From: Prorocentrum cordatum
Lineage: Eukaryota
Assembly (NCBI GenBank): GCA_963575745.1
Contig: CAUYUJ010000282.1
Coordinates: forward strand, 62,001-115,929
Length of the DNA stretch: 53,929 bases
Reading direction: 5' to 3'
Below the pieces are notes generated by a model, which saw only the letters and a program-made list of their open reading frames with translations, was not told where the DNA came from and ran no database searches. The translations under genes and the position numbers were made by a program. The stretch's first letter is position 1. Every line of letters begins with the position of its first letter. This document shows positions 6,107 through 28,230 of this stretch, piece by piece.

Positions 6107-6281
6107 ACCCTGACATCCTCCATCATGATTTTTTCAATCCGCTCCAGACGGATTGAAAAGAGTAGCACGGATTGAAATCGAATGGATGGATTGATAATTT
6201 TCAAAGCGGATTGATTTTTCTAAAGGTGGATTGATTTTTGGTAGCAGCGGATTGATTTTTGTCCCAACGGATTGATTTTTG
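6107..6281 (+). repeat. Left TIR (6107-6159) and subterminal GGATTGA(TTTTT) array
   Basis: TCAATCC at 6134, then GGATTGA at 6150, 6169, 6188, 6208, 6228, 6249, 6269. Confidence 0.85.
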
Positions 6282-6399
6282 CACATTTTGGCTTCTTAAC
6301 TTATAATTATGTTAGCTTCCTTACAAGTGGTATTGATACCCGAGGCGTTGATATTTTAGCAAGCAGCCATGTAATACAGTGACATCTCTACAACCTTGA

Positions 6400-7985
6400 C
6401 AGGAAACCGACGGATTGCGGGCCGAGTTTTCTATTGTGGACAGTACAGAACTCGCCACGCGCGCGCGCGGACGCGCGCGCGCGGAGATTGTCGACCATCT
6501 ATAGGAGGCCGACATTCGAACCCGCCACGCGCGCGCGCGCGCGGACGCGCGCGCGCGCGCGTGCGGAGTTCTGTATTGGCGACAATAGAAAAGCCAGTAT
6601 GTAATTCCAAAAACTAAATTTGAAATTTCTGGGGCCCTTTAAGGAGGCCGACGGAGTGGCCGACTTCTCTATTGTGAACAATACATTCGAACTCGCCACG
6701 CGCGCGCGCGCGCGGACGCGCGCGCGCGCGCGCGGACGCGCGCGCGCGCGTGCGGAGTTCTGTATTGTCGACACTAGAAAAGCCAGCATGTAATTCAAAA
6801 AACTGAATTTGAATTTTCTGTGGCCCTTTAAGGAGACCGACGGAGTGGCAGACTTTTCTATTGTGAACAATATCATTCGAACTCGCCACGCGCGCGCGCG
6901 CGGACGCGCGGACGCGCGCGCGCGCGCGTGCGGAGTTCTGTATTGTCGACAATAGAAAAGCCAGTATGTAATTCCAAAAACTAAATTTGAAATTTCTGGG
7001 GCCCTTTAAGGAGGCCGACGGAGTGGCCGACTTCTCTATTGTGAACAATACATTCGAACTCGCCACGCGCGCGCGCGCGCGGACGCGCGGCGCGCGCGCG
7101 GAGTTCTGTATTGTCGACACTAGAAAAGCCAGTATGTAATTCCAAAAACTACATTTGAATTTTCTGGGGCCCTCTAAGGAGGCCGACGGAGTGGCCGACT
7201 TCTTTATTGTGAACAATACATTCGAACTCGCCACGCGCGCGCGCGCGCGCGGACGCGCGCGCGCGCGCGGACGCGCGCGCGCGCGGAGTTTGTATTGTCG
7301 ACAATAGAAAAGCCAGTATGTAATTCCAAAAACTAAATTTGAAATTTCTGGGGCCCTTTAAGGAGGCCGACGGAGTGGCCGACTTCTCTATTGTGAACAA
7401 TACATTCGAACCCGCCACGCGCGCGCGCGGACGCGCGCGCGCGCGCGTGCGGGTTCTGTATTGTCGATAATAGAAAAACCAGTATGTAATTCCAAAAACT
7501 AAATTTGAATTTTCTGGGGCCCTTTAAGGAGGCCGACGGAGTGACAGACTTTTCTATTGTGAACAATGCGTTCGAACTCGCCACGCGCGCGCGCGCGGAC
7601 GCGCGCGCGCGCGTGCGGAGTTCTGCATTGTTGACAACACAAACGCTACCGTGCAATTTCAAAAACTGAATTTGAAATTTCTGTGGCCCTTTAAAGAGGC
7701 CGACGTACGCGCGCTGGTGAGACGTGTCACCCGCGCGCGTGCGCGCGCGTGGGGATCGAGTTCTGTCGACACATACTATAAAAAGTTGCCACGCAATTCC
7801 ACAAACTGAAGTCAAACTTTCTGTGCAACCGGATAGAAGACCGACGGAAGCGCGCGGGTGACACGTGTCACCCGCGCGCGCTCGCGCGTGGGGAGCTCTG
7901 TATTGTCCACAATAGAAAAGACGCCGTGCACTTCCAAAAACTGGCTCTGAAATTTCTGTGGGCCTTAAAGGAGACCGACGGACGC
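6400..7985. repeat. Tandem array of ~9 units (mostly 166-189 bp), each containing a long hairpin with a (CG)n core
   Basis: CCGACG anchor at ~6407, 6647, 6836, 7014, 7182, 7366, 7532, 7699, 7841, 7974; arms CTATTGTGAACAATACA..GAACTC..CACGCG / CGCGTG..GAGTTC TGTATTGTCGACAATAG are complementary. Confidence 0.92.
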
Positions 7986-8652
7986 GTGCTGATTTGCATT
8001 GCCGCGCCTTGCTTTACAGACAATGCTGATTCGACGCTGTGCTCTTCACTACACTCTTAATACTTACAGTATGCCAAACACATAAATCTTAAAAAATAAC
8101 TATGACAGCGCACTGCGACACAATGGTATATATGTATATATGTTTGCGTATATATATATATATACATATATATATATTAACTATCGTCCTGGCAAAAGCA
8201 TGTGGTACAACGTCATTCGCATATGCATGAACACAACACTTGCAGCTACAGGGAACGCATGCATGTGTATGTATATATACGTTGCACACACCCGTATGCA
8301 TATGCATATACATATACATATACATACAACACAAACACATCGCGTGGGCACCGCGGTACCTAGAGACCGATTGCCCACCCCATCTTGGCGTTTTTGTTCA
8401 CAGCGCTGGCCGCTGGCCCAGCGCCGCGGGCGCGCGCGCGCGCGCCCCGCACCCCCCCCCCCCTCCTCCGCCACTCCCGCCGCGAGCGCCTGCGGGAACA
8501 GGGGTGGGCGAGAGCGGAACCGCGCGCTGAGCTCAGTCGACGGGGCGCGACGTGGTCGGCCTCGGCGGGCCGACTGGGCATGCGCATGCGATTCCGCTCG
8601 AGCACATCCCTACTCTCGCCCTCTATCCTCCTCCTCCCTCGGGCCGTCGGCG

Positions 8653-9527
8653 ATGGCCCCCCCCAAAGAGAAAGGCGCGAAAGCTTCGAGTGTCGACGAG
8701 GGCATGGCACGGCACATGCCGACTGCAAAAGTGGCGACGTCGATCTTGGCCCAGGCCAGCTGGGGATCGGGTAGAGAGGGGCGACCGTGAGTTATATATT
8801 GGACAAACGTGGGCATAGGAGACGGAGGTACAGAGGGGGAGAAAAAAGGAAGGACATAGGGAGGATGGATAGAACAATTTGGGAAGGAGGAGGGAGGATG
8901 ATGGAGGGGGCGGGGGAGGGGGTGATGGAATGAATAGGGGGCGGTCACGGAGGAATTATGCGCAGGAACGAAGGGGGGGGGGAGGTGGATGTGGAGCGAG
9001 CGAATCACCCCCCCTACCGCAGGCGATGCTGAACACCCCTGAAGAAGGTGATCCATGGCCTATTCTTCTAGGATCGATCGGGGACGGGAGGGAGCGATGA
9101 TGACGAGGGTGGGCATGTAATTGGCACTGCTGGTGAACGCGCTCCCACTCTTCTCAGATGTCAGTGTCCGTTCTGGTCCATGGGGTGCGCTGGCTGCTGC
9201 CTCACTTGAGCCGTTGGGCCGTTAACGTAATTACTCACGCCACCGCCGTCATTATCCTCGCCGTCGTGATCGTCGATCGTCGTCGTCATCGTCACCATCG
9301 TCGTCGGCATCGGCGTTAGCATAACCAGCAGCGTCAACATCCTCATCAGAAGTACCAGCATCTTCGTCATTATCAGCATCATCAGCATCACCGTTCTCAT
9401 ATCGCCAGGAAGGCCATCGTCATCATCACCGCCATCATCTTAGGGAGTGGTTAGGTGGATAATGTGGGAGAGAGGGAGAAAGAGATGAAAGGGGAGAGAG
9501 AGAGAGAAGTAGAGAGAGGGAGCGATA

Positions 9528-9562
<35 letters not shown>

Positions 9563-10651
9563 ATCTATAGTACGTGTACACGCATACCTACATGCCATGA
9601 TGACTTTCCAGTGATCGGGGTTGGTGGGGGATGGTGGTGGGCAGGCGACGTGCCAGATTTCAAGTACAGCGTCTACAAGTTCGAGCACAGAGCGAAGATG
9701 AATGAAGTGCAGGCTTGAGATGGGGCTTGTGATCATGCCACCTTTCTGTTCGAGGGACGTGCGAGGCGATTGCGGTGGATGGCGATAAGTATGATGATGA
9801 AGGAGGGCGAGGATTCACGATGTGGTTCACGTTTCACGATGTCCTCGTCCGCCTCTTCTGCCCTCAACCATCATTATGCTCCCCCCTCTTTCCGACGGGG
9901 AGGTCTTCGGCACGCTCATGAGCGAGATGCAGATGATTGGCAATTCCCATCGCTTCTCGCAGAAGACGGTCATGGAGCGCCATGGGGAAGGGACAGCTCG
10001 ATGTGCTTAGCATGGCAATGGTCACCATCGTCACCACCACCACCGCCAGCACCATCACCAGTATCACCATCGTCGTCGTCGTCAGAATCAGCAGCATCAT
10101 CATCATCACCATGACAGTCACCATCATGGCCATCAACATCCATCAGCAGCATCATCATCATCAGCATCATCAGCATCTAATTAATCACCATCACCGTGGC
10201 CAGCGTCGTCGCCGTCATCATCGTCATCGTCATCATCATCATCAGCATCATCATCGCCATCACGATGCCGATGGGGACCATGATGACAATGGCGACAATC
10301 GCTGTTCTCACGATCATGACGAATACGACGGCGACGATGATGACGATGGCGACGACGATGACGATGACCAGCATCGTCATCATCATCACCACCACGATTA
10401 CGACGTCCAGCTGAGACGGCGGGGAGGCGAAGGATGGCCAGCAAACGCAGCAGTAGGATAAGTCGCATCATGAGCAAGTGGATCGATTGACGGGGAGTGA
10501 GGCGGCTTGGGATTATGCGTACAAGATCAAGTACGTCGAGGCATATCGAAGCGTGCACGGTCGTGCTCCTGTGACGGCGCGTCTGGAGGGCGTCAGGTGC
10601 CACCTTCTATTTTGAGTTGCACCATTCGTGCCAGAGAGGGGGTCGGGGTAA

Positions 10652-10715
<64 letters not shown>

Positions 10716-27626: not shown

Positions 27627-27646
27627 CACTATACTACTACTACTAT

Positions 27647-27687
<41 letters not shown>

Positions 27688-27757
27688 ACTACTACTACTA
27701 CTTCTACTACTACTACTACTAATACTACTAATAATTACTAATACGACTACTACGACT

Positions 27758-27795
<38 letters not shown>

Positions 27796-27858
27796 TACTA
27801 CTACTACTACTACTACTATACTACTACTATTACGACTAGTACTACTACTACTACAACA

Positions 27859-27892
<34 letters not shown>
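27150..27892. repeat. Compound microsatellite (GTC/CCT/CTA/GAC)n
   Basis: Directly visible trinucleotide runs. Confidence 0.95.
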
Positions 27893-28104
27893 GTTAGTTG
27901 GTAGCGGCGCTGATTTTGACTGCCCAAGTGTGGCCAACATGTCCATTACTGCGGTTGCGGCGCTCCGTAAGTAGAGCCACACATATATCGAGGTCGCATG
28001 AAGTTAACCTGCGCGTGCATCTAGTTATGGTTGCGGAATTCCGCGTGTTATGACACATGTAGGCGTGTCCCTGAACGCGCACTGGTTTCGGCGATTTTGC
28101 TTGA

Positions 28105-28230
28105 ACGCGGATTGGTTTCACTAACCAAGGATTGATTTTGAGTGAATGGATTGATTTTTTTCAAGCGCTTGATTTATTTTCAATCCGTTCAAAAGCGGAT
28201 TGAAAAAATCATGACCTAGGATGTCGGGGT
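28105..28230 (-). repeat. Right subterminal GGATTGA array and right TIR (28177-28230)
   Basis: GGATTG at 28109, 28129, 28148, 28197 and TCAATCC at 28180; reverse complement matches 6107-6159. Confidence 0.85.

Follow-up and report, generated by a model that had tools for sequence, protein, structure and literature searches.

A probable autonomous-type transposon of an uncatalogued CACTA/Mirage/Chapaev–Transib lineage in Prorocentrum cordatum

Introduction

Transposons of the CACTA/Mirage/Chapaev (CMC) group combine short terminal inverted repeats with arrays of subterminal repeats and duplicate 2–4 bp of their target on insertion, the duplication made by Mirage being 2 bp. Besides the transposase, EnSpm/CACTA elements encode a second, DNA-binding protein of the TnpA type. 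Transib elements leave a 5-bp duplication and have heptamer-like CACAGTG ends, and giant cargo transposons such as the fungal Starships and Teratorn are moved by a tyrosine recombinase and by a piggyBac–herpesvirus fusion, respectively. Across EnSpm/CACTA, Mirage, Chapaev, Transib, Plavaka, ESTA, Lanisha and RAG1 the ends are mostly CA...TG and the duplications 2–5 bp long, according to excerpts of PMC12730594. Here we analyse a 53,929-bp stretch of the genome of the protist Prorocentrum cordatum (the window), in which positions 6107–28230 had been read, in an initial annotation of the letters, as a giant, cargo-carrying transposon of the CMC type and as a candidate new system.

Our analysis indicates that 6107–28230 is probably a structurally complete, autonomous-type class II transposon belonging to an uncatalogued lineage of the CACTA/Mirage/Chapaev–Transib (‘CMCT’) assemblage. 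Its working parts are most likely a pair of 37-nt inverted repeats, terminal hairpins, arrays of the heptamer GGATTGA and a 642-codon, two-exon gene for an Asp-Asp-Glu (DDE) transposase. The combination of short inverted repeats with subterminal arrays is that of EnSpm/CACTA, Mirage and Chapaev elements, and the putative target duplication would likewise be as short as those of the CMC group. Unlike EnSpm/CACTA, however, the element ends in ACCC...GGGT rather than CACTA or CA...TG, has no demonstrated second (TnpA-like) protein and resides in a protist rather than in a plant or animal. It differs from Transib in its putative 2-bp CT duplication and its ACCCTGA ends. All that it shares with the giant cargo transposons is a size in the tens of kilobases; no cargo genes are shown, and its enzyme is a DDE transposase of the CMC type.

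The ends of the element

The two ends are made up of the following features.

6107–6143, + strand: terminal inverted repeat of the left end, first letters 5'-ACCCTGACATCC
28194–28230, − strand: terminal inverted repeat of the right end, last letters ...GGATGTCGGGGT-3'
6105–6106 (left copy) and 28231–28232 (right copy): CT, a putative 2-bp target-site duplication, the two flanks being identical
6131–6159, + strand: terminal hairpin, TTTTCAATCCG / 7-nt loop / CGGATTGAAAA, mirrored at the right end at 28178–28206
6150–6280, + strand: left subterminal repeats, seven direct copies of GGATTGA(T/A)TTTT with a period of 19–21 bp
28129–28203: right subterminal repeats, four copies of GGATTGA at 28129 (+), 28148 (+), 28180 (−) and 28197 (+)

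Positions 6107–6143 match the reverse complement of 28194–28230 at 33 of 37 positions. Further inward, a second block, ACGGATTGAAAA, matches at 12 of 12 positions; it is separated from the repeats by four bases without a match and is displaced by 1 nt. When the 19-nt core TCATGATTTTTTCAATCCG was sought on both strands with up to three mismatches, it was found at two sites in the window, both at the ends of the element, and in none of 100 dinucleotide-preserving shuffles. Complementarity of the flanks breaks off precisely at ACCC/GGGT. A CACTA string at 6103–6107 was considered as the terminus and rejected, being without a mirror at the right end and not belonging to the inverted repeat.

The window contains 15 copies of the heptamer GGATTGA, compared with 6.9 expected, and 12 of these copies lie within ∼170 bp of the two ends (eight sites in 6134–6275 and four in 28129–28203). 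Repeat arrays near both ends are a property of EnSpm/CACTA elements, and the left array may represent putative binding sites of the transposase or of an accessory protein. Furthermore, the predicted DNA fold of 6107–6200 (94 nt) gave z = −3.06, with 1 of 200 shuffles folding equally well. Alignment of both ends thus reproduced the inverted repeat (33/37 plus 12/12) that the initial annotation had described; the CT that it placed beside each end is present, the subterminal motif that it reported at both ends is confirmed by the GGATTGA clusters, and the ACCC...GGGT termini that it called unusual are indeed atypical when set against the CA...TG norm of the group.

The transposase gene and its family

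The gene lies in the right-hand part of the element.

24626–26022, + strand: transposase exon 1, from the ATG, encoding D164, the CxCGCxxxC cluster, D265, C285xxC288 and D419xxH422
26023–26200, + strand: predicted intron of 178 nt with GC...AG ends, suggested by the shift of frame and by the colinear alignment to homologues that have no interruption
26201–26732, + strand: transposase exon 2, encoding H586xxxH590 and the presumed catalytic E610 (DEQEN), to the stop codon

Apart from the intron, the 642 codons run without interruption. The frames at 24377–26086 and 26166–26732 are colinear with a single homologue of 638 amino acids (P0001), the first displaying 43% identity over 448 aligned residues and the second 49% identity over 178 aligned residues (residues 462–635 of 638). 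Removal of the GC...AG intron restores ...HLRRRLKTYY..., and homologous open reading frames (ORFs) in two metagenome contigs, L001 and L008, are uninterrupted over 681 codons. The intact DDE transposase that had been proposed for this locus is therefore borne out as a two-exon, 642-codon gene with a D-D-E triad. Among the listed datasets that contain the gene, none was an RNA dataset.

With E ≤ 1e-3 as the threshold, an exhaustive HMMER search retrieved at least 2226 cluster representatives of the family, of which 1114 remained at 1e-10 and 86 at 1e-30, all counted at 50% clustering among environmental sequences. None of the ten members looked up has a functional name. A word-indexed search gave one protein of 56% identity, from a protist transcriptome collection, and viral contigs gave no relative. 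When the 69 aligned members were scanned with Pfam at E ≤ 10, a single one touched DUF4218 (E = 0.022). No paper describing the family came up in searches of the literature on dinoflagellate and Symbiodiniaceae DNA transposons (CACTA/EnSpm), Repbase lying outside that search.

Conservation was read from a 69-row alignment, in the numbering of P0001. The aspartates D157 and D258 are each present in 68 of 68 rows. Conservation of the cysteines is almost as complete (C192, 68/68; C194, 69/69; C196, 68/69; C200, 64/68; C278 and C281, 68/68 each), and the same is true of D415 (68/68) and H418 (67/68). Further along, H581 is kept in 34 of 42, H585 in 31 of 41 and E605 in 28 of 32 of the rows that cover these columns, the denominators being smaller because many rows are truncated at the C-terminus. 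The window protein keeps all of the motif residues, namely D164, D265, C285/C288 (PCFLC), H586/H590 (KHHAAVH) and E610. The D-D-E triad, C(2)C and H(3)H that characterise CMC and CMCT transposases are thus all found.

Relatives were also located with a 10-row alignment at 14 metagenome loci, on contigs of 1.4–6.3 kb. The five that were checked (L001, L002, L004, L008 and L011) displayed no convincing inverted repeats, and a GGATTGA-type motif was seen at none of the 14.

Predicted fold and classification

An AlphaFold2 model of P0001, built on the 69-row alignment, was obtained with a predicted local distance difference test score (pLDDT) of 94 and a predicted template-modelling score of 0.92. 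In this model D157 is positioned on the first long strand (149–160), D258 just after the fourth strand (249–257) and E605 on a late helix (602–617), the usual order for an RNase H-like DDE core that carries a large insertion domain. Compared with 48,161 solved chains, the model matched RAG1 best (Z 14.6, 454 aligned residues, root-mean-square deviation (rmsd) 6.0), with further matches to BbRAGL, the RAG-like transposase of amphioxus (Z 13.8), and to the P element transposase (10.8), and lower ones to ISCth4 (8.6), HzTransib (8.4) and Hermes (5.6). Likewise, the best 40 rows returned by Foldseek were all RAG1 or RAG-like chains.

The best matches among solved structures are therefore to the Transib/RAG1 group and extend across almost the whole protein, a likeness of fold only and of the homologue's model. 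The arrangement C(2)C ... H(3–4)H ... E is common to both as well, with the histidine pair (H581/H585) ∼24 residues before E605. Unlike Transib and RAG1, the family has no sequence match to the solved chains, has an additional CxCGCxxxC cluster following strand 3 and contains a PDZ-like module.

Among the Atlas predicted structures, the nearest named clusters were Plavaka (PF18759) with a template-modelling (TM) score of 0.65 and Transposase_21 (PF02992) with a TM score of 0.66, over ∼480 residues. The second of these is a point of likeness to EnSpm/CACTA, for which large autonomous copies also exist; there is, however, no Pfam match to Transposase_21. By protein-language features no named cluster is nearer than Plavaka (0.91, with 153 features shared), which has the motif set in common with the window protein and includes, in PlavakaA, elements with a 2-bp duplication (excerpts of PMC12730594). 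In contrast to Plavaka, the window protein has no PF18759 match; Plavaka elements are fungal and, in the same excerpts, end in TGT..ACA or CATCA..TGATG.

We accept the CMC type at the level of motif and fold because the window protein carries every motif residue of the group. At that level the assignment is supported, for an element with atypical ends, a duplication known from one site and no sequence match to a catalogued family. The CMC label of the initial annotation hence stands as regards the motif set and the fold, but not as regards Pfam membership in Transposase_21 or Plavaka, or CA...TG ends.

In the predicted mechanism, the transposase would bind the subterminal repeats, perhaps aided by an accessory protein, and pair the two ends. 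Excision would be of the cut-and-paste kind through a hairpin intermediate, as with RAG1, Transib and hAT enzymes, and reinsertion with a 2-bp stagger would give the CT duplication.

As a separate observation, the PDZ-like β module lies in the insertion domain, at 314–396 of the P0001 model (∼321–403 of the window protein), and matches many PDZ domains with Z scores of 5.3–6.3 over ∼64–83 aligned residues (rmsd ∼2.6–5.7), middling values that can reflect a common arrangement.

Alternative explanations

Two features in the middle of the element bear on its unity.

17125–17589: 11-bp tandem repeat, ∼42 copies, reaching into the scaffold gap
17596–17695: scaffold gap of 100 N inside the element, directly after the 11-bp tandem repeat

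A number of observations speak against a complete element of the CMCT assemblage at 6107–28230. Pfam gave zero matches for the transposase frames of the window at E ≤ 10 and zero for 32 homologues at E ≤ 0.01, with the Transposase_21, Plavaka and KDZ families included, and by sequence the family profile reached the solved chains with a noise match only (E = 0.88). The ends, read as 5'-ACCC...GGGT-3', are not the CA...TG (CACTA-like) termini of the group. The evidence for the fold comes from the model of P0001, a homologue 43–49% identical to the window protein, rather than from the window protein itself, and the catalytic roles are assigned by predicted secondary-structure position and by conservation rather than by coordinates. 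The CT/CT duplication represents one insertion, for which the chance of a 2-bp match is 1/16. No second copy of the element was seen in the window or the listed contigs; no orthologous empty site was found either, runs X9 and X10 matching at microsatellites only. In run X1, which holds 83% of the sampled words of the transposase gene, an A5 run is lengthened by one A after 25086 in one of the contigs; this would break the frame in that copy and may equally be explained by a sequencing error. The left flank is related to an unnamed environmental protein (P0165, see below), the tail of which has no match in the right flank, and no single open frame spans the flank junction once one CT is deleted; continuity of the flanks is unproven because the P0165 match does not resume on the right. 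Lastly, the two ends are separated by the 100-N gap, which none of the listed contigs bridges.

The locus might be an immobile relic, or its transposase might have been domesticated, the intact ORF being kept for a host function or not yet decayed; we regard this as unlikely. It would agree with the inverted repeats differing at 4 of 37 positions, with an interior swollen by repeats and with there being no second near-identical copy evident in contigs at ≥90% likeness, contig depth not being copy number. Within the gene, eight differences are listed between run X1 and the window, three of them synonymous, three non-synonymous and two in the intron, and selective constraint cannot be shown because six coding differences are too few. 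However, the locus keeps every catalytic and zinc-motif residue, its two ends, the subterminal arrays and the possible duplication. Moreover, differences between the left and the right end are common among active elements, and domesticated transposases usually lose their repeats.

We consider it quite unlikely that the element is a product of scaffolding, that is, that its ends derive from two different elements or fragments and that inner ends or unrelated DNA lie in the gap. With an 11-bp tandem repeat immediately before it, the gap is a typical contig break, no listed contig runs across it, and the CT/CT match may have arisen by the chance given above. Set against this, a low-GC, ATAC-rich texture is common to both sides of the gap and ends at the two inverted repeats. 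Of the ATAC-type hexamers of the window, 225 of 230 lie between the inverted repeats, an interval of 41% of the window length, and on both sides of the N gap; the GC fraction in 2-kb bins is 0.48–0.56 inside the element compared with 0.56–0.67 outside, except for one outside bin, in a telomere-like array, with 0.50. The inverted repeats are correctly oriented and no third copy of an end (≤3 mismatches) is present in the window, so that neither half is a compact complete element, no further repeat copy lying inside. Even without the left end, the part that bears the transposase would still measure at least 10.5 kb (17696–28230).

Contigs of run X1 lie over all 30 bins of 8700–28699 with few differences per piece, and metagenome run X2 contains near-identical pieces from both halves of the element. 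None of the listed contig joints skips a large part of it, and all of the listed joints fall in microsatellites. Taken together, 6107–28230 is likely to be one element, its length of 22,124 bp and its contiguity being statements of the scaffold because the 100-N gap lies between the ends. The earlier proposal that two ends 22 kb apart bound one mobile unit is backed by the inverted repeats, the CT flanks and a common composition, but the gap is unbridged.

Contig depth in run X1 is ∼7–13 for interior pieces and ∼30 at the right junction and flank, depth not being copy number. The region at depth ∼3× that of the interior (28043–28699) comprises the right junction with its flank and is represented by several overlapping variant contigs, one of which has small indels at 28187–28191, within the right end. 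Extra copies of the right flank or of the terminal region are possible from this depth, with the same reservation as to copy number.

The interior of the element

Besides the transposase gene and the 11-bp repeat, three features were annotated between the ends.

6528–7705: tandem array of 166–184-bp units, ∼6 copies, with a (CG)n-rich palindrome in each and degenerate copies to ∼7990
12047–12898, + strand: candidate second gene, 283 codons from stop to stop, the sole other coding-like ORF
27274–27892: (CTA)n microsatellite, ∼206 copies, lying after the transposase gene and before the right end

The bulk of the element is non-coding and consists of the tandem array, minisatellites, microsatellites and ATAC-type low-complexity DNA. 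Because most of its length is non-coding, the size of the element reflects repeat-rich filler and not cargo genes. The predicted fold of 6400–6610 gave z = −7.9, which, together with the (CG)n palindromes at 6528–7705, agrees with the structured hairpin array previously noted between the ends. An Rfam scan of the window returned zero families.

The interior contains 152 stop-to-stop frames of at least 80 amino acids, 111 of which passed a low-complexity filter; 101 of these were scanned with Pfam here and ten earlier. No credible family was present among the 101, the two matches obtained being of low complexity and both below the cut-offs, and most of the long interior frames are translated micro- and minisatellites. 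Passenger genes unrelated to transposition, by which giant cargo transposons are recognised, were not found in this set.

The ORF at 12047–12898 lies on the same strand as the transposase and comprises an N-terminal part of basic and acidic low-complexity sequence and a C-terminal part of 134 amino acids. In the latter, the GC fractions of codon positions 1, 2 and 3 (0.60/0.42/0.72) resemble those of the transposase. Its single-sequence AlphaFold2 model has a pLDDT of 63.9, rising to 71–87 in the helical C-terminal part. No Pfam family and, by word-indexed search, no homologue was found for it; the best score in the Atlas (0.82) is at chance level, and Foldseek gave nothing at E ≤ 0.001 for the model. 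By analogy with EnSpm elements, this ORF may be a candidate accessory gene, and as an accessory gene it would not be cargo.

That the locus is a giant multi-gene transposon, with cargo genes besides the transposase and founding a new giant-transposon family, is highly improbable: the 22.1 kb between the inverted repeats and the same-strand ORF, with its coding-like codon-position GC and partly confident model, favour it, but the Pfam scan found no family in 101 interior ORFs, the best of them has neither homologue nor fold match, the other long frames are satellite translations, and a single accessory gene is normal for EnSpm-type elements. Furthermore, large and gene-bearing relatives have already been described, namely a 20.5-kb putative autonomous CACTA element of soybean (excerpts of PMC2613891) and Pack-CACTA elements with captured gene fragments (excerpts of PMC6379663). 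Since the soybean element is published, 22 kb falls within the known size range of the superfamily, as far as the excerpts show, and giant size is not the novelty that it had been taken for. The up to four unknown genes of the initial annotation reduce to the one coding-like ORF, for which no relatives were found, and its multi-gene, cargo-carrying description finds no interior ORF besides the transposase with a family or a relative. A new giant cargo-carrying system is thus not supported, whereas the transposon itself is real and its transposase lineage is uncatalogued within a known group.

Implications

Tentatively, and with some doubt, the probable transposon at 6107–28230 could provide, for an unnamed lineage without a Pfam family, the first copy in a genome whose ends are defined; this lineage would be CMC/Transib/RAG1-like, widespread in marine microbial eukaryotes (at least 2226 representatives) and equipped with hallmarks of its own, perhaps including a lineage-specific second protein (ORF 12047–12898). 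The hallmarks of such a lineage would be ACCC...GGGT ends, a 2-bp duplication, a terminal hairpin, GGATTGA repeats phased at ∼20 bp, the CxCGCxxxC cluster and the PDZ-like module.

If true, a deep protist branch would be added to the group from which RAG1 arose. The element could also help to show where protist lineages belong in the history of CMC, Transib and RAG1. The transposase family has many members in environmental data yet is invisible to Pfam, and models of its repeats and transposase would be useful for annotating poorly understood protist genomes. Moreover, both ends with their putative binding-site arrays, together with the intact gene, constitute a concrete substrate–enzyme pair for biochemical tests.

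Flanking sequence and the wider window

The element is inserted in GC-rich sequence. On its left, a frame at 5174–6100 (+ strand) is 53% identical over 310 aligned residues to P0165, an unrelated and unnamed environmental protein of 378 amino acids and the sole homologue obtained for this flank; the homology reaches 6100, six bases before the inverted repeat, an observation in favour of the proposed left end. No Pfam family was assigned to this frame. In a Pfam scan of 84 flank ORFs there was no credible family, no reverse transcriptase and no endonuclease, and the four matches at E ≤ 0.001 were all below or barely at the cut-offs, in low-complexity stretches. A resemblance of the left flank to the endonuclease of a long interspersed nuclear element is accordingly unsupported, no endonuclease being present in that scan. 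Altogether, the 185 ORFs of the window besides the transposase (101 inside the element and 84 outside) gave zero credible Pfam families, and a spliced-leader relic, sought by its motif, was not found.

Simple and tandem repeats dominate the window, and three further regions outside the element were noted.

43103–47242: interstitial telomere-like array of 4.1 kb, CCCTAA/CCCTAAA, consensus CCCTAACCCTAACCCTAAA, ∼650 hexamer units, with extreme strand skew
38770–39167 and 47249–47635: similar segments of ∼380 bp, up to 84% identical, each internally palindromic
36477–38092: tandem array with a 78-bp unit, ∼16 copies to 37754 (Tandem Repeats Finder) and self-matches to ∼38092

The telomere-like array may be a chromosome end brought here by fusion or by mis-scaffolding, or it may be genuine interstitial telomeric sequence, and the segment at 47249–47635 follows directly after it. 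Copies of the 78-bp unit are 72–77% alike, with higher-order periods of 313 and 391 bp.

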